48,157 nt of DNA from Burkholderiales bacterium (GTDB taxonomy: Bacteria; Pseudomonadota; Gammaproteobacteria; Burkholderiales; SG8-41): contig DASYSI010000078.1 in assembly GCA_036003485.1 (NCBI GenBank), positions 1 to 48,157 of the forward strand. Direction: 5' to 3'. The notes under the pieces were generated by a model. It was given only the letters and a program-made list of their open reading frames with translations. It had not been told where the DNA came from and searched no databases. A program made the position numbers and the translations under genes. Below are positions 24,441 to 45,810 of the stretch, piece by piece. How positions within the stretch are numbered: position 1 is the first letter of the stretch; every line of letters begins with the position of its first letter.

Positions 24441-24983
24441 CTATCGGCTGGCGGGGCCGCAGCTGCCGCTGTCGATCCACAAAGCCAAATTGAAATACGT
24501 GTAGGGCGCGCCGCCGATATGTGGAAGCGGTACCCACCACAGCCACCAGTCTTCTCTGGATTCTTCGATTGAGACTGGCACGCGATCGATCGTGCAATGA
24601 GCAAGGTTCACACTGGCGAACCGCACTTGTCGTGCCCATGTCACAAACCACCGCGACTTCGTTTCATAACACTTTTGCCACGCGGCCATGCCTTCGCGGC
24701 TGGAAGACGCTTCCTGCTCTATTTTGCGGCAATCACCGCTGTCGGGATGATAGATTGACGCAGTGCCCAAAGGCTTGTCAGCTCTTGCCTTCGCAAGGAT
24801 CGTCCCGGCCGCATTTGTAAAAGCCAGGTCAGCGCTGACAACGTTTCCATAGGCCTGTCTGTCATTCTTGAGTGATACGTCGTAAATCGAAACATTCAGA
24901 TTTGCGTGAGTAGAAACGTGATAGTAACCCCAGCCTAGAACGACTATCGTTAGCCCGGCGAATAAGAAGAGTGCTTTCCACAT
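24441..24983 (-). CDS. hypothetical membrane-anchored protein (single N-terminal helix, 4-Cys extracytoplasmic domain)
   Basis: 180 aa. MWKALFLFAGLTIVVLGWGYY is followed by a ~150-aa soluble domain. I recognise no family. GC is lower than in the flanks. Confidence 0.55.
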   Translation of the reverse strand: MWKALFLFAGLTIVVLGWGYYHVSTHANLNVSIYDVSLKNDRQAYGNVVSADLAFTNAAGTILAKARADKPLGTASIYHPDSGDCRKIEQEASSSREGMAAWQKCYETKSRWFVTWARQVRFASVNLAHCTIDRVPVSIEESREDWWLWWVPLPHIGGAPYTYFNLALWIDSGSCGPASR

Positions 24984-25009
24984 CTAAGATTGCGGCGGGT
25001 ATGCCCAAG

Positions 25010-25633
25010 CTAACCGGCACCGGGCGGTCGGTTCGCGGGCGGTGCCTGCGCGGCATCGGGATTCAGCGCAAGACCAGAGAACATCCCTCTTCGAGTGGCG
25101 AGCCACGCGAATCCAACGAACAGGACAATCAGCAAGACCAGTGCCGCGCCGGTCAGCCATATCGTGAGAGGGCGGACGGGCCCGCTTGGCCACAACATCA
25201 TGGCAATGATAGGAACGCAGACTAACGCTGCAACCACCGGAGCATGACGTTGGAAGACCAACACCAACGGAGCGCCAACTACGAGTGTAAGCAGCGCTGC
25301 CGCAAGCAAAGACCTTGTGAGAATCAGCGTTGCAGTCAACGTGACTTCGTGGCCAGCAAGGGGAATGAGCGAGTCGGTAAACTTTGTCGCGGCCGCATAG
25401 ATGACGACGGATGCCCAAGCGAAGGTAGGCAGAAAAAGAACACGCGTTAGCATAGAAAACTGAAAGTATCCGGGGGCACGCCAGGCGGCGAGGAAGGTCA
25501 ACACCGCGAACAGCGCCACGGCGACAGCAAACCACTGACCCAGCCAGCGCAACGAGTAGCCGGTGTAATCGATGGCAACAATGGCAAGCCAGACTATGGC
25601 GAGAATAAGTGGAGCAATCTCGGAGCGGCGCAT
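25010..25633 (-). CDS. hypothetical polytopic membrane protein (~6 helices)
   Basis: 207 aa, strongly hydrophobic, lying 26 nt upstream of the previous gene. I recognise no family. Confidence 0.55.
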   Translation of the reverse strand: MRRSEIAPLILAIVWLAIVAIDYTGYSLRWLGQWFAVAVALFAVLTFLAAWRAPGYFQFSMLTRVLFLPTFAWASVVIYAAATKFTDSLIPLAGHEVTLTATLILTRSLLAAALLTLVVGAPLVLVFQRHAPVVAALVCVPIIAMMLWPSGPVRPLTIWLTGAALVLLIVLFVGFAWLATRRGMFSGLALNPDAAQAPPANRPPGAG

Positions 25634-25713
25634 GATGTCAGCGATCCTCTCTAATGTGAAGCAGGTGAAAAGACAAGTGACAATTTAGTTGGAAGATCCA
25701 CAGATATTGATGT

Positions 25714-25735
25714 GTAGTGGTCGCGCGACTACTAC
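25714..25735. repeat. 22-bp near-perfect palindrome GTAGTGGTCGC|GCGACTACTAC
   Basis: 10 of 11 positions are self-complementary by direct reading. It is located about 80-100 bp upstream of start 25633. Confidence 0.6.
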
Positions 25736-26180
25736 AAATTAGTGCTCCCTACTTTGACGCTCAACGTAGTGTTAGACGGCTGAGCGCTCGATAACAGTGT
25801 CTTGCGCCGATGACGAGCCATTATGCTTGATAACAGAGCAGCCCTGCTAGATAACGTAGCCGTGCGGAATAACATCGCATGGTCATATTTCGTTCGTTAA
25901 TGCCTATTCTCCTCCCGTTCTTCTAGAGCGGGACCGCGAACGGCCGCACTCCTCGTCCGTTATCTGACAATGTCTGCCAAATCAACTCCCGAATCGAATG
26001 CGGTCATTGCGGTGAGCTTGGGTCGAAGCCCAAGTTATTCAAAATCGATAGTGGATTCACATCCTCGACCGTCAAGGAAGAGTGCAGGTATCTGGGCAAC
26101 GGATGCGACTGAGACGCTTGCAAACGCACTCATGGGTGCCCGTGCGGGGATTTGTTCGAAGAATGCTCGCGTTACTTTAG

Positions 26181-26438
26181 CCGTCTAAGTGCAAATGTGC
26201 AGCCGATTCTTTCGCCGGGAAGCTGCGTGGCGTAATGACGGGTTTCAAGGCTGCGGGTTTGACACAGCGAGCGATGGTGACCGAGTTGACGACGCTGGGG
26301 ATTCGCACCCCGAACGGCGCCCCCGTATGGTCACTGATCCAGGTTCAGCGTGTGCTCACGCGGGGGACAGATCCGCGCCCCCCTTTCGAACTGCAGTTGC
26401 CTCACCGTAGTGAACTGCGGTTTTCTGGAAATGACTGA
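26181..26438 (+). pseudogene. serine recombinase (resolvase/invertase family) C-terminal relic
   Basis: An in-frame stretch after TAG 26178 reads ..ADSFAGKLRGVMTGFKAAGLTQRAMVTELTTLGIRTPNGAPVWSLIQVQRVLTR. This fits the C-terminal DNA-binding tail of small resolvases (..AG..S.R.IA.ELN..GI.T..G..W....V...L.R). No catalytic domain is readable upstream. Confidence 0.45.
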
Positions 26439-26539
26439 CTGCTATCGAAAGCCGCGACCTTCCACTATTGGACCCAAACCGGTCGGTATCGAATCTCGAA
26501 ACCGAACGCTCGGCTCATTGGCGTGCGCAAACAAACCCC

Positions 26540-27025
26540 TTAACGGGATGGAGCAACTGTCGGAGCTGCAGCGGGTGGCTTTGGCGTCGGCGAGTTGTGA
26601 AACTGGACAATAAGCCACTTGTCACCGCGTTTTTGCATCACGGCCGTGACTCGTGATGGTCCGGCTGTGATCATCTTTCCATCAAGAGTTCTTTCTGATT
26701 GCCATTTTCCTGAGATTACCACTACGCTGTCTGAAAGCAGCAAAGCCTTGTTCTCAAAAGGTCTCGCCGTAACCTCCCCACGAGTTCCAGACAAGGCTCC
26801 CGTGAAATACGCGATTACGCCTTCTGGGGTGGTGACAACTTCGGCAGAACCAGTGCCATAGAACAAAGCATCTGGAGCAAATAGCGCGGCCAACTGATTT
26901 TGGTTGCCAGTGGTGAACAACGTGAAGAATTTATCGTATGCAGCAAGCGCATCTTCTTTGGGACCGGCCTGAACTAATGTTGACCAAGCAAGCACAATCA
27001 AAAACAAACTAAATCGATTCGTCAT
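26540..27025 (-). CDS. secreted NTF2-like (SnoaL/DUF4440-type) protein
   Basis: ORF 26540..27046 trimmed to ATG 27025 (MTNRFSLFLIVLAWSTLVQA signal). AAYDKFFTLFTTGNQNQLAALFAPDALFYGT is typical of DUF4440/SgcJ-like proteins. There is a Pro/Ala-rich tail. Confidence 0.6.
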   Translation of the reverse strand: MTNRFSLFLIVLAWSTLVQAGPKEDALAAYDKFFTLFTTGNQNQLAALFAPDALFYGTGSAEVVTTPEGVIAYFTGALSGTRGEVTARPFENKALLLSDSVVVISGKWQSERTLDGKMITAGPSRVTAVMQKRGDKWLIVQFHNSPTPKPPAAAPTVAPSR

Positions 27026-27104
27026 TACGGCCTCCCAAACGGTCAACTTTATAGGTATTTTGAATTAGTCTCAGTTCCTCGAACGCGTGCGCAGCGGAGT
27101 ATAA

Positions 27105-28075
27105 CGCACTAAACGGACTCGTAAGCTCGCCAATCAAACGCACGTGAGCAAGACCGATCCACAAGCGACTCTGGTTTCCCGCAAGAATGGCCCAAGAAAG
27201 CTGTGCTACAAAGCTCACTTCGCCATCGATGCGGGTAGCCGGATGGTCACTGATTGCCATGCGACTACCGGATCCCGGCATGAATGCCCAATCTTGCCCG
27301 AGCGAGTCGCATTCATCCGAGAGCGCCTGGGGTTAACGATCCAGGAAGTCATTGCTGATCGAGGATACGGACGGGGACCGACCTACTCGGATTTACGAGC
27401 ACAAGGCATTCGTCATTACATTCCGCTCCACGATCCGAGAACCGGTCATGGCAAATTAACGCCTGGCGAGTTCAAATACGATCGGCGCAATGACCGATAC
27501 CAATGTCCCGAGGGGCATCATTTATATCCCTACGAGAGGCTCGACAATGGCATCAAGCGCTATCGCATTCTTGGCGGACATTGCAGAAATTGCCCGATAA
27601 AGGACAAGTGCCTGCCGGACACGGCGCAAGATCGCGCGCGCTTCGTGTATCGTGGACTGCATCAAGACGAGATCGAGGCGGTTCGACGTCGCCAGCATAC
27701 GAAGACGTTCGTACGACGGCTTATTGAGCGAAAGTGGAAGATTGAAGGCATCTTCGGAGAGGCGAAGGTTAACCATGCCCTGAGGCGGGCCCGCTATCGT
27801 GGCTTACCGAAAGTGCAGATTCAGTTCTTCATGATTGCCATCGCGCGGAACTGCAAGCGGGCAGTTCTGGGCCGATTGGGCTATTTATTGCGCCTGTTAC
27901 TGCTACTTACGCTTGAAAGAAAGGTCCTAGCACCGAGAAAGACAACATTCTGGATAAACGACAAAATCTGCGGCACAGGAAATGCGATCGAAAAATCCCT
28001 CGAAAAAGCGTTGACGTTCGCTGTCTAGATAAGAAAACAAGGGTTGTTCAACACGCCGTTGCGACTACTACAATT
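27105..28075 (+). mobile_element. IS5/IS1182-family insertion sequence remnant with 5'-truncated DDE transposase (27105..28028)
   Basis: KTDPQATLVSRKNGPRKLCYKAHFAIDAG, ADRGYG, C-x2-C..C-x2-C (YQCPEGH..CRNCPIKDKC) and GIFGEAKVNHALRRARYRGLPKVQIQF are the catalytic and C-terminal parts of IS1182-type transposases. The frame opens only after TAA 27102, so the N-terminal ~150-200 aa are missing. The right end is only a guess, near GGGTTGTTCAACACGCC (28041-28057). Confidence 0.7.
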
Positions 28076-28263
28076 GACGCCATATTCTGCACTTGCCATC
28101 GTCATTGCTCAATACCGATGCGTAATGGGAAAATTCTGTCTTTCTATGCGGCTTCCTTGCACGGACCACACCCTCGTCAAGGGAAATGCTACGCTTGTCC
28201 ATAAGAGACTTCATCCACAATTTGGATGCCAGACGTGCTTTTTTATTTTCTGCGAGGAACGAT

Positions 28264-28566
28264 ATGCCAGTCGGAGAAGAGGTTTTGATCAAGACCGAGA
28301 ACGCCCTCGTCCGCGTCGTCGAGCTTGGACCGGGCGAAGTGGCGAGGTGGCACTCGCACAATGAGGTGACCGACAACATTTTCTGCCTGACCGGCAGGAT
28401 GTATGTGCGGATGAAGGATCCGGACGAGGAAGCCTTTTTAATGCCGGGCCAGAGGTGCACGGTCATACAAGGCCGCATCCATCAGGTCGTCAATGCCGAT
28501 CCGGCGAAGATGACTTACCTGCTGGTGCAGGGCGGCGGGCGCTACGACTTCAACGTGCGGGGATAA
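28264..28566 (+). CDS. cupin-domain protein
   Basis: ORF 28186..28566 trimmed to ATG 28264 (GAGGA upstream). 100 aa with the two-motif cupin pattern GEVARWHSHNEVTDNIF and RIHQVVN. Confidence 0.7.
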   Translation: MPVGEEVLIKTENALVRVVELGPGEVARWHSHNEVTDNIFCLTGRMYVRMKDPDEEAFLMPGQRCTVIQGRIHQVVNADPAKMTYLLVQGGGRYDFNVRG

Positions 28567-28632
28567 TGAAAAGCAGGATCGATGCCTCTGGCTTGGTTAT
28601 TGACTGCGTAGTAACGCGCCGCCGCGACGACA

Positions 28633-29670
28633 CTATCTGGCCATCCCGAGCTCAGACAGCGCCGCGCGGAACTGCTCGTACTCGGTCTTCATGTAGCGCT
28701 CGGTCGCGGCGCTATCGAGGTACGTATTCTCGAACACGTTCGCCTCGAGGTCCTTTTTCCATTCGTCGGTCTGGGTGAGCTTAGCCAGCACGCGATCCCA
28801 AAAAGCGATTTGCGCGGCGCTCATGCCCTTCGGACCCGCCACCATGCGCCAGTTCGTGACGAGCGCGTTGACGCCCTGCTCTTTCCACGTCGGAACACTG
28901 GAGAGCACGCCACCCAGGCGGCGCGCAGCGGCGACTCCCAGCACGCGCAACTTTCCGGCTTCCAAATGCGGCACGACGTTGTTCGCCGCGGACGAATTCA
29001 CGTCGACGTGTCCGCCGAGCAGCGCGGTGATGGCTTCACCGCCGCCCTGAAATACGACTGTCCTGAGTTTTCTCGCGTCGCCGCCCGCGCTCTTCGCGAT
29101 CAGCGCCATCGCGATATGGTTGGTGCTGCCGAGACTGCTGCCGACCGCGACACTGACCGACGCTGAATCTTTTTTCAATCGCTCGAGCAGGTCTTTTCCG
29201 GTTTTCAGCGGCGAGGCCGGCAGCACAGATATCGCGACCGATTCGCTGAGCAATATCGCCAGCGGCGTGATGTGGGTGTAATTGATCGGGCTGCGCCCGA
29301 CGATGTGATTGGTCAGCAGCGTCGGATTGCCGACGTAGATGATATTTCCTTCGCCGGCATGCTGATTGAGATAAGTCCACCCGACCGCGCCGCCGCCGCC
29401 CGGTTTGTTGACGACGGTGACTGCGACATCGACGAGATGCTTTTCCACCAGCAGTCGGTTCAGCGTGCGCGCCGTTTTGTCCTGGCCTCCGCCGGGCCCG
29501 GTACCAACGATGATTTCGATGCTCTTGTCCGGTTTCCATGGCGCGGTAGCGGCGTAAACCTCCGCCGTGCCTGCCATTCCCATGGCAACGAGCAACAGCA
29601 CCGCCAATACAGTGCTACCCACGCTGCGCGTATCGGCATCTGTCTTTGATCGCTTCATTCTTGCATCCAA
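28633..29670 (-). CDS. Bug/TctC-family substrate-binding protein (TctC-proper-like subgroup)
   Basis: 345 aa with a signal peptide, then WKPDKSIEIIVGTGPGGGQDKTAR. An alternative start is ATG 29658. Confidence 0.9.
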   Translation of the reverse strand: MDARMKRSKTDADTRSVGSTVLAVLLLVAMGMAGTAEVYAATAPWKPDKSIEIIVGTGPGGGQDKTARTLNRLLVEKHLVDVAVTVVNKPGGGGAVGWTYLNQHAGEGNIIYVGNPTLLTNHIVGRSPINYTHITPLAILLSESVAISVLPASPLKTGKDLLERLKKDSASVSVAVGSSLGSTNHIAMALIAKSAGGDARKLRTVVFQGGGEAITALLGGHVDVNSSAANNVVPHLEAGKLRVLGVAAARRLGGVLSSVPTWKEQGVNALVTNWRMVAGPKGMSAAQIAFWDRVLAKLTQTDEWKKDLEANVFENTYLDSAATERYMKTEYEQFRAALSELGMAR

Positions 29671-30812: not shown

Positions 30813-31778
30813 TCAATCGACGCGCGCGCCCGAATCCTTGACCACTTTCGCCCATTTTACAATTTCTGATTTGATGTACGCCGCAAAATCCGCGGCGGTG
30901 CCGGGATCCGGATCCGCCCCTTGGCCGCTCAGGTAACTCGCGACTGCGGGTGTGCGCAGAATTTTCACGAACTCCGCATTGAGCTTATCGACGACGGCCG
31001 AGGGCATGCCTGCGGGCCCGGCGAGACCATTCCAGCCCGCCGCCTCGTAACCCGGCACGCCCGCTTCGGCGATCGTCGGCACCTGCGGCAACGCCGCGAT
31101 GCGTTTTAATGTGCTTACACCGAGCGCGCGCAATTGTCCCGCCTTGACGTACGGGACCGCCGACGGCGCGGTCGCAAACGTCAATGCCACATGGCCCGCG
31201 AGCAGGTCGATCATCGCAGGCGGCGCGCCTTTGTATGGCACATGCACGATGCTGATACCGGTCATCGTCTTGAACATTTCAGCCGAGAGGTGCGGCTGAC
31301 TCCCGCTGCCCGCCGAACTGTACAGCAGTTCGCCGGGATGTTTCTTCGCGAAAGCGATGAAATCTCTGACGGTTTTCACCGGCACCGAGTTGTGCACGAC
31401 CAGCACCTGCGAAGTCGAAACGAGCATGGTAATCGGCGTGAAGTCCCTGACCGTGTCGTACGCGAGCTTGCTATACAGACTCGGATTGATGGTGTGTGCG
31501 GTCGACAGGATCAACAGCGAGTACCCATCGGGTGCAGACTTGGCGACATTCTCGGCGCCGATGTTTGCCCCCGCCCCCGCGCGGTTATCGACGACGACCT
31601 GCTGTCCCCAATCCTCGGTCAGCTTTTGCCCCAGCGTGCGCGCGAGTATGTCCGACGTGCCGCCGGGCGGAAAAGGCACAACGATGCGTATTGGTTTGGA
31701 CGGATACGCCTGCGCCAATGCACCGGACGCGAGGCCTGCCGCTGCCGCGCCGAGACATAACACGCCGAAACATTTCAT
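30813..31778 (-). CDS. Bug/TctC-family substrate-binding protein
   Basis: ORF 30813..32012 trimmed to ATG 31778 (MKCFGVLCLGAAAAGLASGALAQAYPSKPIRIVVPFPPGGTSD). Confidence 0.9.
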   Translation of the reverse strand: MKCFGVLCLGAAAAGLASGALAQAYPSKPIRIVVPFPPGGTSDILARTLGQKLTEDWGQQVVVDNRAGAGANIGAENVAKSAPDGYSLLILSTAHTINPSLYSKLAYDTVRDFTPITMLVSTSQVLVVHNSVPVKTVRDFIAFAKKHPGELLYSSAGSGSQPHLSAEMFKTMTGISIVHVPYKGAPPAMIDLLAGHVALTFATAPSAVPYVKAGQLRALGVSTLKRIAALPQVPTIAEAGVPGYEAAGWNGLAGPAGMPSAVVDKLNAEFVKILRTPAVASYLSGQGADPDPGTAADFAAYIKSEIVKWAKVVKDSGARVD

Positions 31779-31948
31779 CGCGCGTCCTGATTGCACTTTG
31801 TCCCCTCTTGAATTCGATAAACATCCGGCCAGCGGCAAATTTCCGCAGTCGCGGGTGATAATATCAAACGTTTCTTGCAATAATCGATTATAGAGCGACA
31901 TTTGATTACGTCGCGGGGACAAATTTTGATTTTGAAACGAGCTCCGGC

Positions 31949-32875
31949 ATGAGCAACGCGCGCAGCGCGTGGCACCCACAACGTGAAATCGCAATCGTCG
32001 CGGGTACGCCACCCGGCGGCGGTTTGGATCGCTCGGCGCGCGCGCTGATGAAAGTCATCGAGTCGCAGAAATTGCTCGACGTTCCAGTCAAGGTAACCAA
32101 TGTCGCGGGCGACGGCGGCCGCAAAGCCTGGACTTATCTCGACCGCTACAGCGGCGATCCGCATGTGCTGTCGATCAGCTCGCCTAACCTGACGACCGAT
32201 AACCTGACCGGCAAGACCACTTTCGATCATGATTCGTACACGCCGCTCGCGACGCTCTACAACGAATACATCGCATTCGTCGCGCGCGCCGACTCGGCGC
32301 TCAAATGCGGCGCCGATCTCATCGAGCGGCTAGGCGCAAAATCGGCATCGGTGAAATTTGCGCTGTCGACCTCGCTCGGAAATCCCAACCATATCGCGCT
32401 TGCAAAGGTTGTGCGACATGCGGGAGGCGACGCGCGCGCCCTCAAACTCAGAGTGTTCGATTCCGCGCGCGATGCGGTCGGCGACGTCATGGCGGGAAAT
32501 GCCGATGTCTGCGCAGTCACCGCTGCGAGCGCAGTGCCGGAGCTGGCAGCCGGCACGATGCGCACGCTGGCTGTGTCCGCGCCTGAACGTCTTTCCGGGC
32601 TTTTCGAGCGCGCGCCAATTTGGATGGAACAAGGGATCGACTGCGTGATCGGCGCGTGGCGCGGCGTCAACGGCGCAAGCGGGCTCGCGCCCGAGCAGAT
32701 TGCATACTGGGACGGCATTCTTTTGGCCGCCACTTCAAGCGCCGAATGGAATGCGCAACTCGCGCAATATTATTGGACCCGCATGTACCGCAGCGGCGCG
32801 GGCCTGCGCGAGTACCTGCAGCGCGAACGCGCACAGCTGAGCGCCGGACTGGCGGAACTCGGCATGCTTCAATAG
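31949..32875 (+). CDS. TctC-like protein lacking a signal peptide
   Basis: 308 aa and a paralogue of 28633..29670. MSNARSAWHPQREIAIVAGTPPGGGLD aligns to the mature start WKPDKSIEIIVGTGPGGGQD. The upstream in-frame stop is TAA 31859-31861, with no alternative start encoding a leader. Confidence 0.75.
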   Translation: MSNARSAWHPQREIAIVAGTPPGGGLDRSARALMKVIESQKLLDVPVKVTNVAGDGGRKAWTYLDRYSGDPHVLSISSPNLTTDNLTGKTTFDHDSYTPLATLYNEYIAFVARADSALKCGADLIERLGAKSASVKFALSTSLGNPNHIALAKVVRHAGGDARALKLRVFDSARDAVGDVMAGNADVCAVTAASAVPELAAGTMRTLAVSAPERLSGLFERAPIWMEQGIDCVIGAWRGVNGASGLAPEQIAYWDGILLAATSSAEWNAQLAQYYWTRMYRSGAGLREYLQRERAQLSAGLAELGMLQ

Positions 32876-32956: not shown

Positions 32957-33511
32957 ATGCGAATGGAAGTCCATGTCCACGGTACCGCGTTCCTGTGCAA
33001 GGGCGTGCATCTGACGCAGGTCGAGCACGCGCTGCGGCCGTGGCTCGATTATCTCGAAGTCGACGCAATCGCAAAAGCGGTAAGCCTCGAGCGCGAGGAA
33101 CCCGGCATCCGTTTCGATACCAAGGAGCAAGCGCTCGACATGTGCTGGACCGGCGAGGTCGGCCGCAGCTTCCACGGCCGTTTGCAGGATGCATTCCAGG
33201 CGCTCGGCCCGCTCACGGAATACGCATCCGAAATTACGGTGACGAGTTATCACGATAACGGCAAGGAAGAATTCCAGCAGATTTTCATCGGCCCGAGCGC
33301 CGAGGCGATCCACGAAATCCGCCGCCAATGCGTTGAAGAAGATCTCGCCGCGTTGCTGTCCCCGCACTTCGAAAAAGGCCGAGTCGATCAGGTGACGGCG
33401 ATCGTCAACCAGATGTTCGATGAAGACTGGAAAAACCGTCCCGCGGTCGAAGAGCCCTCGATATCGACACCGGTATTGCAGCCTCATCCACGCAACCGGC
33501 ATTTGCATTAG
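32957..33511 (+). CDS. hypothetical protein
   Basis: 184 aa and acidic, with GGAG 7 nt upstream of the ATG. I cannot assign a family. Confidence 0.6.
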   Translation: MRMEVHVHGTAFLCKGVHLTQVEHALRPWLDYLEVDAIAKAVSLEREEPGIRFDTKEQALDMCWTGEVGRSFHGRLQDAFQALGPLTEYASEITVTSYHDNGKEEFQQIFIGPSAEAIHEIRRQCVEEDLAALLSPHFEKGRVDQVTAIVNQMFDEDWKNRPAVEEPSISTPVLQPHPRNRHLH

Positions 33512-33567
33512 ATCCGCTTGCGCGAAGAAGCGCTTGGACCGCCGGCTACACTTCCGACGGACGATGT

Positions 33568-34182
33568 ATGGATGACATCGTCAAGGACGCGATGGCCAAA
33601 TGGCCGAACGTCCCCGAAGTCTATGGCTGGCTGCGCCTGGACCGCCGCGGCGAGTGGCTGATCAAGGGCGATCGCATCTCGAATCCGATGGTCGCAGGCT
33701 TTATCAACCGCAATTACGAGCATGACGATACCGGCCGCTGGTTTTTCCAGAACGGGCCGCAACGTGTATACGTCGCGCTAACGTACACGCCATTCATTTA
33801 TCGCATCGAGAATGACCCCGGCGCGGATGCGCCAATGCGCATCGAGACGCACTCCGGAAAGATCGCCAGCCGATTGAACACCGCGTGGATCGACGAGGCT
33901 GGGGTTGTTCTGCTTGTTACCGAATACGGTGTCGGCATGGTAGATGACCGCGATCTGGGCCGCCTGCTGCCATACTTTACCGACGATTCCGGCGCGCCGC
34001 TGACGGAAGAAGCAGTTGCCGAAGCAATCGAGCGTCGGCCCTCGGGAGATATCTACGGTTTGCACATTCGCCATCGCGATCAAACCGTGCCGGTGCGTGC
34101 CATCGCTGCGGACAAGGTCGCGTCACAATTCGGTTTTGTGCAGAGCCCGCAGCAGCCGGTCGGCGCGAAAGAATGCTCCTAA
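33568..34182 (+). CDS. conserved hypothetical protein
   Basis: 204 aa. WPNVPEVYGWLRLDRRGEWLIKGDRISNPMVAGFINRNYEHDDTGRWFFQNGPQRVYV looks like a recurrent proteobacterial DUF, but I cannot name it reliably. Confidence 0.6.
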   Translation: MDDIVKDAMAKWPNVPEVYGWLRLDRRGEWLIKGDRISNPMVAGFINRNYEHDDTGRWFFQNGPQRVYVALTYTPFIYRIENDPGADAPMRIETHSGKIASRLNTAWIDEAGVVLLVTEYGVGMVDDRDLGRLLPYFTDDSGAPLTEEAVAEAIERRPSGDIYGLHIRHRDQTVPVRAIAADKVASQFGFVQSPQQPVGAKECS

Positions 34183-34234
34183 CACAGCGCAGATCTTATC
34201 GCGCGCACAATCAACTCATGCAAGGTCTCTAGCG

Positions 34235-34918
34235 ATGACCGTTCCCGATACGCTGATCAGCACGATCCTCAAAGCGTGGCGTTTTCTCTACAAGCGCGGT
34301 TTCATCGAAGGCTTCGGCCATATCAGCGCGCGTCTGCCTGACCCGGAGCAATTTCTGCTCGCGCGCCATTCGCTCGGTCCCAATGCGAATCCGGAAGATT
34401 TTCTGGTAATGGACATGGAGGGCCGCAAGCTCGCAGGCACCGGAGAGGCGCCGGGCGAGTATCCGATACATCTCGACATATTGAGAGCGCGACCCGATGT
34501 CGGCAGCGTCATCCACTACCACGGAATGTATTCGACGGCCTTCACCACGAGCGAGCACATTCTGCGGCCGATACATCTGATGGGCACGCTGTTTCACGAC
34601 GGCGTGCCGACTTATCCCGACGTCCGGCTGGTGAGCAACCGGCAGCGCGGGCAGGCGCTCGCCCAATCGCTCGGGACGCACCGCGCAGTTCTGCTGCGCG
34701 CGCACGGCGCAGCGATCACCGGCGCCACGATCGAAGAAGCAGTCGGCGGCGCATTCCTGTTTGAGCAGAACGCGCATCGTGCATGCTTAGCCGCCGGGCT
34801 CGGCAAACCGATCTGGATCGACGAGGCGACGGCCGCCGATGCCGGCAGCGAGCTCCTCAAAAGCCGTGGGCCGTTCCGCCGCGTGTGGGCGTTGGTCGAA
34901 AGCGACAACGCGCAATGA
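34235..34918 (+). CDS. class II aldolase/adducin-family protein
   Basis: ORF 34016..34918 trimmed to ATG 34235. FIEGFGHISARLPD, EYPIHLDILRARPDVGSVIHYHG and AVLLRAHGAAITG form the family pattern with metal-binding His residues. Confidence 0.85.
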   Translation: MTVPDTLISTILKAWRFLYKRGFIEGFGHISARLPDPEQFLLARHSLGPNANPEDFLVMDMEGRKLAGTGEAPGEYPIHLDILRARPDVGSVIHYHGMYSTAFTTSEHILRPIHLMGTLFHDGVPTYPDVRLVSNRQRGQALAQSLGTHRAVLLRAHGAAITGATIEEAVGGAFLFEQNAHRACLAAGLGKPIWIDEATAADAGSELLKSRGPFRRVWALVESDNAQ

Positions 34919-34943
34919 AGCGACTCACGGTGATCAACGCCGA

Positions 34944-35918
34944 ATGAAGTTAGACCCGCCTCGTCGCATAACTACCGCGCTGCTCTGCGCTTTGCTTGCG
35001 ATGAGCGCGCAGTCTGCGCTCGCACAGAGCTATCCCGCCAAACCGATACGCATCCTGCTGCCGTTCGCGGGCGGCACCGATGTCGTCGGACGCTTGCTCG
35101 CGGCGAAGCTTTCTCCCGCGATCGGCCAGCAAGTGGTACCCGACCCGCGTCTGGGCGCCGGCGGCAATATCGCCCACGAGGCGGCTGCCAAAGCCGCTCC
35201 GGACGGTTACACGCTGTTGATGGCGGCTCCGCCAGTGGTCATCAATCCGCTGCTCAATCCCAAAGTCGGCTTTGACCCGCTGCGCGATTTTGCGCCGATT
35301 GCGCTGCTCGGCGCGATTCCGAACGCGCTGGTGGTTCATCCCTCGGTGCCGGCGAAAAGTTTGCGCGAGCTTGTGCAGCTCGCGCGCAGCCATCCGGGAA
35401 AACTTTCGTACGGTTCAGGCGGAGTCGGTTCGGCAAATCACCTTGCGGCCGAGCTCTTGAAATCGCTCACCCAGATCAACATTCTGCATGTGCCGTACAA
35501 GAGCGCGACGATCGCGCTCGTCGGCGCGATGAGCGGCGAGGTCGATATCGTCTTCGTCGCTACGTCGAGCATTGTGTCGTACGTCAAAGAAGGCAGGATG
35601 CGTCCATTGGCGGTACTCGACGTGAAGCGCGTCGGCTCGCTGCCGCAGGTGCCGACCTCAGCCGAGGCCGGGATACCGCAACTCACGGCCGTCAACTGGT
35701 ATGTGCTGCTCGCTCCTGCCGGCACGCCGCGCGAGATCGTCGAACGGCTCAATGCCGAGTCGGTGAAGGCGATGACTGCGTCCGATACGCGCGAGCGCCT
35801 CGCTGCGATGGGTGGCGAGCCGGCGTCGGGGACGCCGGCGCAGGCCGCCGATTTCCTGCGCACGGAATTCGAACGGTGGGGCAAAGTTATCCGCGACGCG
35901 GGAATCAAGGCCGAGTGA
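34944..35918 (+). CDS. Bug/TctC-family substrate-binding protein
   Basis: ORF 34839..35918 trimmed to ATG 34944 (MKLDPPRRITTALLCALLAMSAQSALAQSYPAKPIRILLPF). Confidence 0.9.
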   Translation: MKLDPPRRITTALLCALLAMSAQSALAQSYPAKPIRILLPFAGGTDVVGRLLAAKLSPAIGQQVVPDPRLGAGGNIAHEAAAKAAPDGYTLLMAAPPVVINPLLNPKVGFDPLRDFAPIALLGAIPNALVVHPSVPAKSLRELVQLARSHPGKLSYGSGGVGSANHLAAELLKSLTQINILHVPYKSATIALVGAMSGEVDIVFVATSSIVSYVKEGRMRPLAVLDVKRVGSLPQVPTSAEAGIPQLTAVNWYVLLAPAGTPREIVERLNAESVKAMTASDTRERLAAMGGEPASGTPAQAADFLRTEFERWGKVIRDAGIKAE

Positions 35919-35928
35919 GCCGGCGCAT

Positions 35929-35944
35929 GAATCGCATGCGATTC
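35929..35944. repeat. perfect 16-bp palindrome GAATCGCATGCGATTC
   Basis: Read directly. It lies 11 nt after stop codon 35916-35918 and 4 nt before the left inverted repeat of the element below. Confidence 0.7.
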
Positions 35945-35948
35945 GGAT

Positions 35949-36324
35949 CTAGCAGGCTGATGCAGAACCCGCTGGGAGCCGCGTTTGCACGAAAAGTGCT
36001 CAGATGCAAGGCGCGCGACGAAGGTCGAATGCTCGCTCTATTCGACGAGGCGCGCAACGCCGCAGCTGGGCACTTTTCGTGCAAACCCTTCGGGGCGGTG
36101 CTTGGCGGGGCCCGCCGCAGCGTCCGCGCCAAGGCAACGGCGCAGCGCAGGCGGGCCATCGATCGCGCTCCCCGGCCTTGCTTCGCTCCGTCTACGGCTC
36201 GCGCGATCATCTGCTTTGTTGCGAACCTTGCGAATAGTCGGGCTATTCGTCTGCGGCTCGCGTCGCGCATCTCACCCCGCCAAGCACCGCCGCGGCCCCA
36301 TGGGGTTCTGCATCAGCCTGCTAG
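35949..36324. repeat. 376-bp element bounded by perfect 22-bp terminal inverted repeats (MITE-like, invertible-segment-like, or structured RNA)
   Basis: Left arm CTAGCAGGCTGATGCAGAACCC (35949-35970). The right arm at 36303-36324 is its exact reverse complement. Nested perfect complementary pairs are 35983-35999/36070-36086 (17 bp), 36097-36110/36275-36288 (14 bp), 36161-36168/36201-36208 (8 bp) and 36231-36237/36243-36249 (7 bp). Confidence 0.65.
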
Positions 36325-37289
36325 GCTTGTCAGGCAAATGGTTGCTCGTCTTCGCACCATGCCTGCTTTGCAGCGTGGCGGCCGCCCAAAATTATCCGGC
36401 GAAACCGGTACGGCTCATCGTCGCCTTCACTGCCGGCGGCGGCAACGACGTGCTCGCGCGCGTGATCGCGCAGAAATTGGCGCTTGCACTGGGCCAGCAG
36501 TTCATCGTTGACAACCGGCCCGGCGCGGGTGGAACGCTCGGCGCCGAGCTCGCGGCCAAGGCAGCGCCCGATGGCTACACGTTGTTTCTGGCGGGCGTGG
36601 CAACACATGCGATCAATCCGAACCTGCAGAAAAACCTTCCCTACGATCCGGTACGGGATTTCGATGCGGTGAGCCTCATCGCTACCGCTCCGCTGCTGCT
36701 CGCGGTCCACCCGTCACTTCCTGCCCGCTCAGTGCGCGAGCTCATTTCCTTGGCCAGAGCGAAGCCCGGCGCAATCAATTTCGCGTCAAGCGGCGTGGGT
36801 AGCTCGGCACAACTCGCAGCCGAACTGTTCAAGTCGATGACGCGCACCCGCATGCAGCATGTTCCGTATAAGGGCATCTCACAGGGATTAACCGATCTCA
36901 TGAGCGGTCAGGTGCAAGTCATCTTCAATGCCGCGGCCGCACTGCTTACCCACGTGAAATCCGACCGGCTGCGGGCGCTCGCGGTCACCACGCTGCAGAG
37001 GATTCCCGCGCTCGCGGACATCCCCACGATTGCCGAATCCGGAGTTCCCGGCTATCAGGCAGGATCGTGGTACGGAATCGTGGCGCCGGCTGGAACTCCG
37101 CGCGCCATCATCGACAGGCTGAGCCGCGAAACCGCGAGTGCCGTCAAGTCGCCCGAAGTCTCCGCGCGCCTCAACGCCGAGGCGGTGCTTGGCGTCGGCA
37201 GCTCCCCCGAGCAATTCGCCATCCACATCAGGGACGAGCTCGCGCGCATCGGCAAGGTCATCAGAGAGGCAGGTATCACACTCGAGTAA
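36300..37289 (+). CDS. Bug/TctC-family substrate-binding protein
   Basis: ORF 35985..37289 trimmed to ATG 36300 (MGFCISLLGLSGKWLLVFAPCLLCSVAAAQNYPAKPVRLIVAFTAGGGND). The first 8 codons lie inside the right inverted repeat. Confidence 0.85.
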   Translation: MGFCISLLGLSGKWLLVFAPCLLCSVAAAQNYPAKPVRLIVAFTAGGGNDVLARVIAQKLALALGQQFIVDNRPGAGGTLGAELAAKAAPDGYTLFLAGVATHAINPNLQKNLPYDPVRDFDAVSLIATAPLLLAVHPSLPARSVRELISLARAKPGAINFASSGVGSSAQLAAELFKSMTRTRMQHVPYKGISQGLTDLMSGQVQVIFNAAAALLTHVKSDRLRALAVTTLQRIPALADIPTIAESGVPGYQAGSWYGIVAPAGTPRAIIDRLSRETASAVKSPEVSARLNAEAVLGVGSSPEQFAIHIRDELARIGKVIREAGITLE

Positions 37290-37378
37290 TGCATCAAATC
37301 CGGAACGTCCCGCGCTAATGCCGGACGGAATGGAATGCCTGACAATCTCTGAGTTACAGGCCAGCCGCGTCTAGCAGG

Positions 37379-37804
37379 CTAAACCGCGCGGGTTTGAGTG
37401 CCGCGCTCTTCGAGCTCGACCAGCGCGCCGAGAAAATCCTTCGGATGCACGAACGCAATGCGTTCGCCATGCACGTTCGATTGCAGCGTGCCTTCGCCGA
37501 GCACGCGCACGCCTTTGGCGCGCGCGGCGGCGGCTGTCGCTTCGACATCGTCGACGTTGAGACAAAAATGATGAATCCCGCCGTGCGGATTGCGTTCGAG
37601 AAATTTTGCCACCGGCGAATCGGCGCGCGCGGGCTCCATCAATTCGATTTTCGCATTGCCGAGATCGACGTAGGCAAGGCGCACACCCTGCTGCTCGTTG
37701 GTTCTGATCGCGCCGATTTCAAGTCCGTATTTCTGCCTGATCTCGCGCGCCGCGGCTTCGAGGCTGGGAACAACGATCGAAACATGGCTTAAGCCGGTGA
37801 ACAT
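37379..37804 (-). CDS. methylmalonyl-CoA epimerase-like VOC-family protein
   Basis: 141 aa with LSHVSIVVPSLEAA, AKIELMEP, GGIHHFCLNVDD and LVELEE, the MCE pattern. Confidence 0.8.
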   Translation of the reverse strand: MFTGLSHVSIVVPSLEAAAREIRQKYGLEIGAIRTNEQQGVRLAYVDLGNAKIELMEPARADSPVAKFLERNPHGGIHHFCLNVDDVEATAAAARAKGVRVLGEGTLQSNVHGERIAFVHPKDFLGALVELEERGTQTRAV

Positions 37805-40119: not shown

Positions 40120-41097
40120 ATGGCCACGATTTCAAACCGCTTGCCCGCAGTGCTCGCTTTTGGCGCGTGCTTGGTCGCGTGCAATTGCTGGGCACAGAAT
40201 TATCCGGTGCGGGCGATACGGATTATTGTACCCTTCGTCCCGGGCGGCCCGACCGACATCCAGGCACGCTGGGCCGCGCAGCACTTGAACACCGCATTCG
40301 GACAGCCGGTCATCGTCGAGAATCGCGGCGGCGCCGGAGGTGTGCCCGGCAGCGAGGCTGTCGTCAAGAGTGCGCCCGACGGCTACACGCTGCTCGCCGG
40401 CAATCCGGGACCGCTGACGATTGCGCCGAGCGTGCGCGCGCAAATGCCGTACGACACGCTGCGCGACCTGGCGCCGATCGTGCTTATCGCGCGCAGCGCG
40501 AGCTGTCTTTGCGTGCATCCCAGCGTGCCGGCTAAAGGCGTCAAAGATTTCATTGCGCTCGCCAAGAGCCGTCCGGGCAAAATCAATTACGGCTCGCCGG
40601 GCGTGGGCACGGTCGGCCATCTCGCCACTGAACTATTCGCAAGCCAGGCGGGCATCAAGCTCAATCACATCCCGTACAAGGGTGCGGCTCAATACACGAT
40701 CGATCTGATCGCCGGCCACATCGAGCTTGCCATCATTCAGTTCGCCGGCTGCGCGCCGCTCGCGAAACAGGGAAAAGTACGCGCCCTCGGCGCAACCTCG
40801 CTCAAGCGCACGCCGATTTTGCCAAACCTGCCGACAATCGCCGAGCAGGGACTCGCCGGGTTCGAAAGCTATAACTGGAACGGCGTGCTGGCGCCGGCGG
40901 GAACGCCGAGGGCGATCATCGTGCGCATCCACGAGATACTCGCCAGACAGCTCGCGACACCAGAAGGCAGGGAGCTGTTTGTGAGCCAGGGACACGAGCC
41001 CGGCGGCGACGGACCGGACGAATATGCCGCTTTCATCCGCGCCGAAATTGAAAAGTGGTCGAAGGTTGCCAAGGCCGCCGGAATTCAGGCGCAATAG
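40120..41097 (+). CDS. Bug/TctC-family substrate-binding protein
   Basis: 325 aa. MATISNRLPAVLAFGACLVACNCWAQNYPVRAIRIIVPFVPGGPTD. Confidence 0.9.
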   Translation: MATISNRLPAVLAFGACLVACNCWAQNYPVRAIRIIVPFVPGGPTDIQARWAAQHLNTAFGQPVIVENRGGAGGVPGSEAVVKSAPDGYTLLAGNPGPLTIAPSVRAQMPYDTLRDLAPIVLIARSASCLCVHPSVPAKGVKDFIALAKSRPGKINYGSPGVGTVGHLATELFASQAGIKLNHIPYKGAAQYTIDLIAGHIELAIIQFAGCAPLAKQGKVRALGATSLKRTPILPNLPTIAEQGLAGFESYNWNGVLAPAGTPRAIIVRIHEILARQLATPEGRELFVSQGHEPGGDGPDEYAAFIRAEIEKWSKVAKAAGIQAQ

Positions 41098-42359: not shown

Positions 42360-44108
42360 ATGAGTGAATACAAAAGCGAGATTCGCGACGGCATGCGCAT
42401 CGACTGGGACGTGCCGGTCAGGATGGACGACGGAATCGTGCTGCGCGCGGACGTATTCCGGCCGGTCAATCCGGGCCGCTATCCGGCGCTTGTCAGCTAT
42501 GGCCCGTATGGCAAGGGCCTCGCGTTTCAGGATGGTTACAAGACTGCGTGGGAAATCATGTCCAAGCAGAATCCCGACGCGGTGGCCGGCACGAGCAATA
42601 AATATCAGAACTGGGAAGTCGTCGATCCCGAGAAATGGGTTCCGGACGGCTACGCGATCGTGCGCGTCGATTCGCGCGGCGCGGGCCGTTCGCCGGGCCG
42701 CCTCGCCCACAACAACGCGCGCGAAAACCGCGATTTTCACGACTGCATCGAGTGGACGGCGGCGCGATCGTGGTGCAGCGGCAAAGTGGGACTCAACGGA
42801 ATTTCCTATTATGCGAGCAGCCAGTGGCGCGCGGCGGCGACGCAGCCGCCGCATCTCGCCGCGATCTGCGTGTGGGAAGGCTGGGTCGACAACTATCGCG
42901 ATTCGACCCACCACGGCGGCATTATCTGCGTGTTCCGCAAGAACTGGCAGGATATGCAGGTGAAAACCGTGCAACACGGAGTCGGCGAGCGGGGTGCCAA
43001 GAGCCGCCTCACCGGCGAGCTCGTGTGCGGACCCGAAACACTCCCCGAGGAAACGCTCGCGCAAAACCGCGAAGACATGTGGGCGGATCTGCTCGCGCAT
43101 CCGCTCGACGGGCCGTATTACCGCGAGCGCAGCGGCGACTTGTCGAAAGTCACCGTGCCGCTGCTATCGGCCGCCAACTGGGGCGGTCAGGGACTGCACC
43201 CGCGCGGGAACTTCGAAGGCTATGTGCACGCGGCGTCCCAGCAAAAATGGCTCGAAGTCCACGGCGGCTCGCATTGGGCGCCTTTCTACACCGATTACGG
43301 CGTGAAACTGCAGAAGCGTTTCTTCGATCATTTTTTGAAAGGTGCAGCCAACGGCTGGGATCAGCAGCCGCGCGTGCAGCTCCAGGTGCGTTACCCCGGC
43401 GAGAAGTTCGTCGAGCGCTTTGAAAACGAATGGCCGCTCGCGCGCACGCAGTGGACGCATTTTTACCTCGATCCCAAAGCCATGCGTCTTGCGCGCGCGC
43501 CCGACACCGGCGCGGCCGCGCAGACCCTTACGTACGACGCGATGGGCGAAGGCGTGACGTTCGCGACGCCGCCGCTCGACCACGACACCGAGATCACGGG
43601 CCCGTCCGCGCTCAAGCTCTTTATCTCGTCGTCGACAAACGACGCTGATTTATTCGTCGTGCTGCGCGTGTTCGACCCGCACGCGAAGGAAGTCGTGTTC
43701 CAGGGCGCGCTCGATCCGCACACGCCGATTGGCCAGGGCTGGTTGAGAGCATCGCAGCGCAAGCTCGACGCACAGCGCTCGCTGCCGTACCGGCCGTATC
43801 ACGCGCACGATGAACGTCAGCCGCTCACGCCGAGGCAGATCTACGAGCTCGACATCGAAATCTGGCCCACCTGTATCGTCGTGCCGAAAGGCTACCGCAT
43901 TGCAATTACCGTTCGCGGCAAGGACTACGAGTACGAGGGCGCAGCGACGACATTGTCGAACATGAAAAATCCGATGCGCGGCTGCGGCCCTTTCATGCAC
44001 GACGATCCCAACGACCGGCCGCCGGAAGTGTTCGGCGGTAAAGTCACGCTGCACTTCGGTCCCGGCTTTGAGGCAGGCGTGCTGCTGCCGGTCATACCCG
44101 CGAAATAA
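42360..44108 (+). CDS. CocE/NonD-family (S15) serine hydrolase
   Basis: 582 aa with VRVDSRGAGRSPG, nucleophile LNGISYYAS and a C-terminal jelly-roll region WLRASQRKLD..LPYRPYHAHD. Confidence 0.9.
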   Translation: MSEYKSEIRDGMRIDWDVPVRMDDGIVLRADVFRPVNPGRYPALVSYGPYGKGLAFQDGYKTAWEIMSKQNPDAVAGTSNKYQNWEVVDPEKWVPDGYAIVRVDSRGAGRSPGRLAHNNARENRDFHDCIEWTAARSWCSGKVGLNGISYYASSQWRAAATQPPHLAAICVWEGWVDNYRDSTHHGGIICVFRKNWQDMQVKTVQHGVGERGAKSRLTGELVCGPETLPEETLAQNREDMWADLLAHPLDGPYYRERSGDLSKVTVPLLSAANWGGQGLHPRGNFEGYVHAASQQKWLEVHGGSHWAPFYTDYGVKLQKRFFDHFLKGAANGWDQQPRVQLQVRYPGEKFVERFENEWPLARTQWTHFYLDPKAMRLARAPDTGAAAQTLTYDAMGEGVTFATPPLDHDTEITGPSALKLFISSSTNDADLFVVLRVFDPHAKEVVFQGALDPHTPIGQGWLRASQRKLDAQRSLPYRPYHAHDERQPLTPRQIYELDIEIWPTCIVVPKGYRIAITVRGKDYEYEGAATTLSNMKNPMRGCGPFMHDDPNDRPPEVFGGKVTLHFGPGFEAGVLLPVIPAK

Positions 44109-44145
44109 CATCGCGGCTCGATCACGCATCCGGAGAAAAAAGGCA

Positions 44146-45810
44146 ATGGCCGAAAAAACCGCCGCCGTATCGCAGCCGCGCGATTATGAGCTGATCGTCG
44201 AGAAGGACGTGAAGATCCCGCTGCGCGACGGGACGTTCCTCTACGGCGACATCTACCGGCCCGACGGCAAAGACGAACGTTTCCCCGTCATTATCAACAC
44301 CGGCCCGTACCAGAAAGACAAGGTATGGGTGCCGCCCGAGGGTGTAGAGGAAGAGCCCAATCCTTATATGAACTGGGAAACCGCCAACCCGCTGTGGTGG
44401 TGTCCGCGCGGCTATGCGCTGCTGCGCGTCGACAGCCGCGGCGCGGGAAAATCGCCGGGGCAATCGGAGCCAAGCTCGTACCAGGAAGCGGTCGATACCT
44501 ACGACTGCATCGAGTGGGTTGCGCGCCTGCCGTGGTGCAGCGGCAGCGTCGGCGCGCTCGGTATTTCATATCACGCGAATTTTCAATGGCGCGTGGCCGG
44601 ACTGCAGCCGCCGTCGTTAAAGGCAATCGTTCCGTGGGAAGGCCGCGCCGATCTGTATCGCGACCAGGCTTATCATGGCGGAATCTTCGCGATGGGCTTT
44701 ATCGCGAACTGGCATAACGCACAAACCGCTCACCACCTACTCGGCAGACCGCGCAGCTACAACCCCGATGCATTCCACAACGATCTGTTGTGGCAATACA
44801 TGAGCCACGATCTCGATTCAGAGTTCTGGCGCATGTGCAGCGCGCGCTGGGACAAGATCACGGTGCCGATGTACAGCGTCGGCAATTGGGGCGGGTTCTC
44901 GCTGCATCTGCGCGGCAACACCGAAGGCTATATGTGCGCAGCTTCCAAACACAAAAAACTGCGCATCCACAGCGGTTCGCACTTCCATCCGTTTCACTCC
45001 AACGAAGGGCGCCTCGATCAGTTGCGCTTCTTGGATTACTGGCTCAAGGATATCGACACCGGAATCATGGACGAGCCGCCGGTCAAGCTCGAAATCCGCA
45101 CCGGCGGCAGCACCAAGCCGTATCCGTTCCGCTTCGAGGACGAATGGCCGATCGCGCGCACGCAGTGGACCAAGCTGTATCTCAAGATCGAGCGCGAACC
45201 ATTGGGCAACGACGCAGCTTCCGAGGGCGAACTCACGCGCGCGAACCCTCCCAACACGGGCAAGCTCAACTACCCGGCGAGCAGCGGCCACGCGCAATCA
45301 GCGCGCAGCGGCGTATCTTTCGAAACCGCGCCGATGGCGAAGGATATGGAAGTGACGGGACCGCTCGTGCTTAACCTGTGGGTCTCGAGCACGAGTGAGG
45401 ACATGGACATCTTCGCCACCATTCGCAACATCGGACCTGACGGGAAAGACCTCTGCGAAGTCGGCCAGCGCGGCGACCCCGTCGCATGCGTGACCAAAGG
45501 CTGGCTGCGCGCGTCGCACCGCAAACTCGATCCCGAACGCTCGCTGCCATACCGCCCTTACCACGCTCACAATGAACGGCAGTGGCTGAAGCCCGGCGAG
45601 ATCGTCGAATGCCGCGTCGAAATCTGGCCGACCAGCATGGTATTCAAGCAAGGACATAAGCTTCGCCTCGACATTACACCGCGCGACGGCGTGGGCACGG
45701 CACACTTCACGCACTATCAGGCCGATTACAACGCCGGCGCCGACAACGCGATATACGCCGGAGGCGACAAAGCTTCGTATCTGTTGCTGCCGATTATTCC
45801 GCCCAAGTAG
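44146..45810 (+). CDS. CocE/NonD-family (S15) serine hydrolase, paralogue of the preceding gene
   Basis: ORF 44068..45810 trimmed to ATG 44146 (GGAG at 44131-44134). Contains LRVDSRGAGKSPG, ALGISYHAN and WLRASHRKLD..LPYRPYHAHN. Confidence 0.9.
   Translation: MAEKTAAVSQPRDYELIVEKDVKIPLRDGTFLYGDIYRPDGKDERFPVIINTGPYQKDKVWVPPEGVEEEPNPYMNWETANPLWWCPRGYALLRVDSRGAGKSPGQSEPSSYQEAVDTYDCIEWVARLPWCSGSVGALGISYHANFQWRVAGLQPPSLKAIVPWEGRADLYRDQAYHGGIFAMGFIANWHNAQTAHHLLGRPRSYNPDAFHNDLLWQYMSHDLDSEFWRMCSARWDKITVPMYSVGNWGGFSLHLRGNTEGYMCAASKHKKLRIHSGSHFHPFHSNEGRLDQLRFLDYWLKDIDTGIMDEPPVKLEIRTGGSTKPYPFRFEDEWPIARTQWTKLYLKIEREPLGNDAASEGELTRANPPNTGKLNYPASSGHAQSARSGVSFETAPMAKDMEVTGPLVLNLWVSSTSEDMDIFATIRNIGPDGKDLCEVGQRGDPVACVTKGWLRASHRKLDPERSLPYRPYHAHNERQWLKPGEIVECRVEIWPTSMVFKQGHKLRLDITPRDGVGTAHFTHYQADYNAGADNAIYAGGDKASYLLLPIIPPK

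Follow-up and report, generated by a model that had tools for sequence, protein, structure and literature searches.

The question raised by this locus is what kind of element separates two neighbouring receptor genes in the 48,157-nt stretch of Burkholderiales DNA analysed here (hereafter the window). A preliminary description had noted a 376-bp segment that is bounded by inverted repeats and filled with nested stems, and had left three readings open for it: a MITE-like mobile element, an invertible segment (inverton), and a structured leader or non-coding RNA. Our analysis indicates that the segment is very probably one copy of a dispersed non-autonomous MITE, typically about 280 bp in length, of Casimicrobiaceae-like Burkholderiales. 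The first reading was favoured by a multi-copy family with conserved terminal inverted repeats, by TA flanks and by the absence of the element from close relatives. The element is an ordinary one in an instructive position, and it leaves the current understanding of MITEs unchanged.

Anatomy of the 376-bp segment

The 22-mer CTAGCAGGCTGATGCAGAACCC at 35949-35970 is matched only once more in the 48-kb window, without any mismatch, by 36303-36324 of the minus strand. The two terminal repeats are therefore exact reverse complements of each other over 22 of 22 nt, as had been described. For the second match, 0 occurrences were expected according to 100 dinucleotide-preserving shuffles, and the repeat pair is thus beyond chance. 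The terminal inverted repeat reaches 28 nt at a complementarity of 93% (35949-35976 with 36297-36324), and the pairing of the left repeat runs on to about 35983. Two nested inverted repeats were found inside the segment, one of 25 nt with 92% complementarity (35983-36007 with 36062-36086) and one of 20 nt with 95% (36091-36110 with 36275-36294). The strong folding suggested by these stems was also observed: the RNA fold of the 376-bp segment has a predicted energy of -240.5 kcal/mol, compared with -177 +/- 5.6 kcal/mol for shuffled sequences (z = -11.3), and the DNA fold gave a z of -10.3. The genes on both sides are indeed members of the TctC/Bug family. The features of the locus are summarised in Table 1, in which the upstream gene is named Bug1, the downstream gene Bug2 and the truncated gene between them BugX.

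Table 1. Features of the element and its flanking genes in the window
Feature	Position	Strand	Remarks
Whole 376-bp element	35949..36324	+	Family profile match in two parts; collinear with other copies in alignments
MITE proper	35952-36321		Flanks C-TA (35949-35951) and TA-G (36322-36324)
Left terminal inverted repeat core, GCAGGCTGATGCAGAACCC	35952..35970	+	Columns invariant or nearly so in 23 copies
Right terminal inverted repeat core	36303..36321	-	Exact reverse complement of left core
Left flanking TA, presumed target dinucleotide	35950..35951	.	Right partner 36322-36323
Internal hairpin 1 (family helices 2-5)	35983..36086	+	Arm sequence differs from other subfamilies, complementarity kept
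Internal hairpin 2 (family helices 7-10)	36091..36294	+	Encloses private insert
99-nt private insert, 76% G+C	36110..36208	+	Gap between two profile matches; insertion in alignments
Upstream Bug/TctC gene, Bug1	34944..35918	+	Pfam TctC, E 5.9e-67
BugX relic, first 8 codons (MNRMRFGS) of a third Bug gene	35927..35950	+	Cut at left MITE end
Downstream Bug/TctC gene, Bug2	36327..37289	+	From ancestral TTG start; alternative in-frame ATG 36300, MITE-borne

A dispersed repeat family and the window copy

To determine the copy number, which the preliminary description had named as a check on a mobile element, one genome per species was scanned with the 19-mer GCAGGCTGATGCAGAACCC. The scan returned 36 loci, nearly all of them in Casimicrobiaceae or in uncultured betaproteobacterial MAGs, with several copies per genome and at most 4 loci per MAG. 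The window itself holds one copy only, since no further copy was found within its 48 kb by a search allowing up to 3 mismatches, by repeat finding or with the family profile. Paired inverted ends were present at 25 of the 36 loci, where they enclose elements of 248-421 bp, mostly of 280 bp. The 19-nt terminal core is conserved in 26 copies, and the units align over their full length, the window element being collinear with them. The copies are separated by indels of about 10-14, 99 and 141 nt; therefore, the family has no conserved reading frame and no coding capacity.

A family profile was built from 22 copies, the window copy being excluded, and was then compared with the window. The left half of the segment (35950-36109) matched profile positions 2-162 with an E value of 4.7e-22, and the right half (36209-36324) matched positions 165-280 with an E value of 1.2e-12. 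From this two-part match we took the window copy to belong to the family and to carry a private insert of 99 nt, and this insert (36110-36208) is the reason why the copy measures 376 bp and not about 280 bp. The insert is absent from the other family copies and is present in two contigs of the same locus, L037 and L038. The nearest relatives of the window copy are the copies at L024 and L029, with roughly 72-81% identity, and the window copy belongs to a divergent subfamily.

The MITE family is previously undescribed; it adds a new family to a well-known type of element, the TA-targeting bacterial MITE. No paper was returned by a literature search for the terminal repeat sequence. The Rfam scan of 35000-37500 at a permissive threshold gave only a chance-level match to Ysr224 (19.9 bits, where the gathering score is 70). 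When a typical copy and the window copy were aligned by BLAST against a plasmid collection there was no real match, and the scan of viral contigs likewise gave no match to the element. The 19-mer matches in Klebsiella, Polaromonas and a few others have only about 20 nt in common with the family and are probably due to chance or are relics. With this description a repeat family of a poorly studied soil lineage (Casimicrobiaceae and relatives) gains an anatomy and a name.

Several variants of the unit were observed among the copies. One subfamily, exemplified by L006, L010, L019 and L020, carries a 13-nt palindromic insert, CATTTG(T/C)CAAATG, in hairpin 1 (columns 130-142 of alignment A1), and a 12-nt TTAGTTGGCAAATT-like insert occurs in hairpin 2 of the same subfamily (columns 335-346); the two inserts often co-occur and give rise to copies of 304 bp. 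A separate insert of 141 nt brings the copy at L021 to 421 bp, and 44 nt are deleted from the copy at L017. Reduced to a terminal repeat plus 0-60 nt, solo or severely truncated copies were seen in L034 (about 4725-4762), L036 (1482-1523), L014 (2779-2801), L001 (5597-5660) and L007 (4695-4751), which suggests that internal deletion or decay is frequent in the family. The ends of three contigs (L037, L042 and L046) fall at the element or within it, as is expected because repeats break short-read assemblies. The family is a source of broken assemblies and also misleads gene callers, which in the window set a false or alternative N-terminus of 9 codons.

Target site and candidate mobilising enzyme

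The search for a target-site duplication, another check named earlier, was answered by the ends of the family copies. Just outside the 19-nt core, TA was found at 22 of 32 left ends and at 25 of 31 right ends, that is at 47 of 63 ends in total (about 75%), compared with a background TA frequency of 1.4% in the family loci. The next base outward is C or T on the left (30 of 32) and G or A on the right (28 of 31), which corresponds to a YTAR context, mostly CTAG. The outermost 3 bases of the 22-mer differ between copies and the adjoining G/C is invariant. No direct repeats longer than TA were found flanking the copies, and within single copies (for example L006, L020 and L031) a TTAG on the left is accompanied by a CTAG on the right. 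Since the outer bases differ within single copies and the G/C beside the TA is invariant, the duplication is a 2-nt TA and not a 4-nt CTAG. The window copy has TA on both sides, but its two flanks come from different ancestral loci, so that it is uninformative by itself.

Insertion at a TA within YTAR/CTAG is the signature of IS630/Tc1-mariner elements. The mobilising transposase is most likely of the IS630/Tc1-mariner type, judged by the TA/CTAG target only; on the same TA-target basis the element RUP has been linked to IS630-Spn1 (PMC2229807). In the mechanism that we propose, a TA-specific DDE transposase supplied in trans would bind the terminal repeats (GCAGGCTGATGCAGAACCC), excise the element and paste it into a TA within YTAR/CTAG, and the TA would be duplicated. 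A full-length parent or a transposase gene with matching terminal repeats was found neither in the 36 loci nor in the plasmid collection or the viral contigs. No transposase was recognised beside the solo or truncated repeats in L001, L004, L007, L014, L015, L018, L023, L032, L034 and L036, and none of the copies yielded a clean empty site (flank-TA-flank).

An IS5-family (DDE_Tnp_1) element with a YTAR target, in place of an IS630/Tc1-mariner element, is unlikely as the parent and mobiliser of the MITE. The YTAR target is typical of IS5-group elements too (ISfinder family descriptions), and the insertions do lie in this context. The 4-mers on the two sides, however, often have unlike outer bases, which gives a duplication of 2 nt and not 4, and an IS5-family parent is therefore less likely than one of the IS630 type. 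The fragment of a DDE_Tnp_1 transposase gene that is present in the window at 27144-28028 would also fit an IS5 parent, but its ends are unrelated to the MITE repeats; for this reason, and because the gene is truncated, the fragment was rejected as the mobiliser.

The element lies exactly on a gene-order breakpoint

Comparison with relatives that lack the element showed that the left- and right-flank sequences of the window are not contiguous in them, and the element sits exactly on this synteny breakpoint. On the left side, contigs L042/L045 and L044 are 98.7% identical to the window over 32987-35950, and L042 has the identical 324-aa product called for Bug1. Past the 'ggatct' these contigs contain no element and continue into an intact Bug paralogue of 327 aa (MNRMRFGSAGIATALLCA...), the BugX gene, which is followed by a HAD-type hydrolase and then by a threonine-aldolase-like gene. 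The window contains neither the rest of BugX nor these two genes. On the right side, contigs L039 (94% DNA identity) and L040 (89%) are homologous to the window from 36325 onward; both lack the element, and the TTG of the downstream Bug gene is preceded there by divergently transcribed PrpF and Ldh_2 genes, both of which are absent from the window.

The junction sequence of the relatives is 'ggatcTGccgg' for the left flank and 'ctgcGCTTG' for the right flank. A TA is present at this point in neither of them, so the arrangement is not a simple insertion. If the right junction is taken as a simple insertion into a CTAA located 17 nt upstream of the orthologous TTG, an extra 11-nt deletion and a substitution are needed. 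We infer that the two loci may have been joined by recombination between two MITE copies or by a transposase-mediated adjacent deletion. Alternatively, a deletion could have created a CTAG by chance, into which the element was then inserted.

The locus provides a concrete case of a MITE placed exactly at a gene-order breakpoint within a cluster of paralogous Bug receptors, with one Bug gene cut short by it and the 5' end of a second one rewired. Such events prune and rearrange the repertoires of Bug receptors.

Three further observations were made at this junction. A perfect 16-nt palindrome, GAATCGCATGCGATTC, lies to the left of the MITE at 35929-35944, over codons 1-6 of BugX, and is also found in the intact BugX of L042 and L044. 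An ORF at 35876-36511 (+), which includes the relic ATG at 35927, stays open across the entire MITE and terminates within Bug2 in another frame; if the relic start were still used, ribosomes would translate across the element. Contig L038 is 98% identical to the window downstream and has the same MITE-Bug2 junction, with hairpin 1 missing (from window 35981-35985 to the region of 36085). Its left side, at positions 330-400 of the contig, consists of the 3' end of an uppS/prenyltransferase gene and an odd fragment, GCAGGCTG-CATCAGCCCGC, that directly adjoins the left repeat. Either short-read assembly produced a chimera here, or the same MITE was the site of a second rearrangement; the contig was treated as possibly chimeric and left out of the evidence.

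Start and expression of the downstream Bug gene

Gene callers start Bug2 at ATG 36300 and give a product of 329 aa, codons 2-8 of which lie in the right repeat core. Exactly this product is found in the JGI contigs L037, L038 and L046, of which L037 and L046 begin inside the element, and the Bug2 coding sequence in L037 and L038 is identical to that of the window. The orthologues of Bug2 (96-74% identity) are 320 aa in length and begin with MSGKW, which corresponds to TTG 36327 in the window, 2 nt outside the element. In L039 and L040 a Shine-Dalgarno sequence, AAGGAG, is located 8 nt upstream of the orthologous TTG. Judged by its orthologues, the native start of Bug2 is TTG 36327 and not ATG 36300. 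The preliminary description had stated that the element overlaps the start codon of the downstream gene; this is true for the called ATG 36300, but not for the ancestral TTG 36327, which lies just outside.

The native Shine-Dalgarno sequence and the upstream neighbours of Bug2, both present in the relatives, are missing from the window, where the element has taken the place of the ribosome-binding region. The gene is predicted to have lost its own promoter region as well. Direct reading of the sequence revealed no purine-rich stretch at Shine-Dalgarno distance from either ATG 36300 or TTG 36327. The former is within the 28-bp terminal stem, and the latter is 3 nt past the end of this stem. Because of the position of the terminal stem and the lack of a Shine-Dalgarno sequence at both starts, we predict that the translation of Bug2 is probably reduced or altered. 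Bug2 is co-oriented with the upstream DUF6806-DUF2946-aldolase-Bug operon, and read-through from this operon across the element is therefore the likely source of the Bug2 transcript, on which its expression would probably depend. Neither a sigma-70-like promoter nor an intrinsic terminator was predicted in the element by a consensus scan.

In most family copies an ATG close to the end (ATGA[C/G]GGGTTCTGC...) opens a frame that runs on into the target site's TAG. Being shorter by 1 nt at this point (ATG-GGGTTC), the window copy has its ATG in frame with the Bug ORF. The in-frame ATG could result from chance or from adaptive repair, and the MITE-derived N-terminus of 9 codons is probably a by-product of gene calling.

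A conserved fold and its possible roles

To see whether the fold is conserved, which had been proposed earlier as a check by covariation, we derived a consensus structure from 23 copies with RNAalifold. The consensus has the shape of a Y and consists of 89 pairs, with a terminal stem of 25 pairs and two long internal hairpins, and 97.4% of the consensus cells are paired. Two-sided changes were observed at 27 pairs, compared with 7.8 +/- 1.9 after shuffling of columns and 3-8 when the partners were slid by 1-3 columns. The fold is thus kept by compensatory changes across subfamilies. The arm sequences of the window copy, of L024/L029 and of the main subfamily are quite different, with complementarity kept; examples are gtttgcacgaaaagtgc/gcacttttcgtgcaaac in the window versus gtttcggacgag/ctcgtcgaaac in the main subfamily, and the set cgaatag/ctattcg versus cgtgtgc/gcacacg versus ccaatgg/ccattgg. 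The fold of a typical copy, L003, gave a z of -12.2.

The copies contain 43 G-U and 27 A-C cells, which is no clear strand bias, as 17 of the U-G cells come from one inherited column. DNA hairpins, recognition by the transposase or transcripts of either strand may therefore be the target of the constraint. In the model that we propose, single strands of the element would fold into the Y, with the two ends forming the terminal stem beside the two long internal hairpins, and this shape would have been preserved by compensatory substitutions while the subfamilies diverged. It should be considered that compensatory changes could also arise without selection, through template-switch correction within palindromes. 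The covariation in a TA-targeting MITE poses the question whether this fold is needed for transposition or for an effect at the RNA level.

It is quite unlikely that the family acts in the host, either as a portable module for RNA processing or translation occlusion or as a recombination hotspot that reshuffles the very large set of Bug/TctC receptors in these bacteria, with the three-way fold selected for this reason and the ATG of the window copy being an adaptive repair that restores the translation of Bug2 after the loss of the Shine-Dalgarno sequence.

Very unlikely, too, is a structured RNA that serves the host in its own right (as a leader, a processing site for RNase III or RNase E, or an attenuator), with its structure selected at the RNA level and its mobility secondary. 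The very stable fold, conserved with compensatory changes, would suit such an RNA; the element lies between two co-oriented genes and is probably transcribed, and Correia and ERIC elements act in this way (PMC10969869; PMC2229807). This explanation is opposed by the occurrence of copies in both orientations at unrelated loci, by the absence of an Rfam match and of a terminator-like site, and by the lack of a clear bias between G-U and A-C cells when one inherited column is set aside. As to the earlier reading of the segment as a structured leader or non-coding RNA, the conserved fold with its covariation was substantiated, but it is a property of the whole transposon family and not of a Bug2 leader. 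By analogy with Correia elements, an RNA-level side effect of the MITE such as cleavage by RNase III is possible.

The inverton reading, in which the 332 bp enclosed by the 22-bp repeats would be turned round by a site-specific recombinase, with a changed 5' end of Bug2 as the result, is suggested by the perfect repeat pair and by the called start codon inside the right repeat, but is hardly credible and was rejected, because the same repeats and interior occur, flanked by TA, at at least 25 unrelated loci in many genomes, because Pfam scans of the ORFs over roughly 13 kb upstream and 5 kb downstream detected no invertase or recombinase, and because the three independent metagenome contigs L037, L038 and L046 all have the orientation of the window, a comparison of low power as it is made on contigs only. 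No sigma-70-like promoter was found inside the element. These scans agree with the earlier statement that no intact recombinase lies nearby, the only hit to an enzyme of this sort being the truncated DDE transposase 8 kb away, whose ends are unrelated.

Comparison with known systems

RUP is 107 bp in length with 9-bp repeats, inserts at TA and is thought to be moved by IS630-Spn1 (PMC2229807). Like RUP, the present family is non-coding and multi-copy, with terminal inverted repeats, TA insertion and long stem-loops. RUP differs in its Gram-positive host and in having a known candidate parent IS, and its sequence is unrelated; the present family has units of 280-376 bp, 19-bp repeats (up to 34 bp with bulges) and two extra internal hairpins, resides in Burkholderiales MAGs, and showed no parent in the loci, plasmids and viral contigs searched.

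Correia elements of Neisseria are 107 or 155 bp in length, with terminal repeats of 24-26 bp and TA termini (PMC2229807), and the stem formed by their terminal repeats is cleaved by RNase III (PMC10969869). The present family resembles Correia/NEMIS in its betaproteobacterial host, long terminal inverted repeats, terminal TA, size variants arising from an internal segment and effects on neighbouring genes, which are predicted here. It is unrelated to them in sequence, two to three times longer and G+C-rich, and has a three-way structure instead of a single hairpin. Identity with Correia/NEMIS was rejected, as units of 280-376 bp in Casimicrobiaceae-type MAGs stand against 107/155 bp in Neisseria. 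Neither an IHF site nor outward promoters were detected in the window element.

In Yersinia, one end of the MITE YPAL/RU-2 at YPO1552 forms the N-terminal part of the signal peptide predicted for an exported protein (PMC2229807). Similarly, ATG 36300 together with 8 MITE codons (MGFCISLLG) is in frame with the Bug signal peptide. Unlike at YPO1552, the fusion here is probably a by-product of gene calling, as the orthologues start at TTG 36327 and neither start has a Shine-Dalgarno sequence.

REPINs, which are paired REP sequences moved by RAYT, share with the present family a palindromic, multi-copy and intergenic nature and hairpins with compensatory changes. TA target duplication and long terminal repeats like those found here are missing from REPINs, and the TA flanks of the present family argue against a REPIN/REP identity. 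The family is larger and more elaborately folded than RUP, Correia and ERIC elements.

Other features of the window

A richness in TctC/Bug receptors is typical of Burkholderiales. Six TctC/Bug paralogues were recognised in the window by Pfam (28633-29670, 30813-32012, 31949-32875, 34944-35918, 36327-37289 and 40120-41097), and two more by tblastn similarity (16149-17159 and 17271-18377). The match of 31949-32875 is weak, and this may be a spurious or degraded ORF.

The transposase fragment mentioned above is a 294-aa ORF (27144-28028, +) with DDE_Tnp_1 and DDE_Tnp_1_6 domains and is apparently truncated at its N-terminus. It lies within a stretch (24600-28600) with a G+C content of 48-55%, compared with about 60% for the window, and no terminal inverted repeats were found around it. 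We regard the ORF as the probable relic of an IS within a foreign island.

Direct repeats with 73-81% identity were observed between 43737-43879 and 45499-45641 and between 43416-43469 and 45130-45183. The repeats lie about 1.7 kb apart and point to two tandem paralogous genes (ORFs 42360-44108 and 44068-45810).
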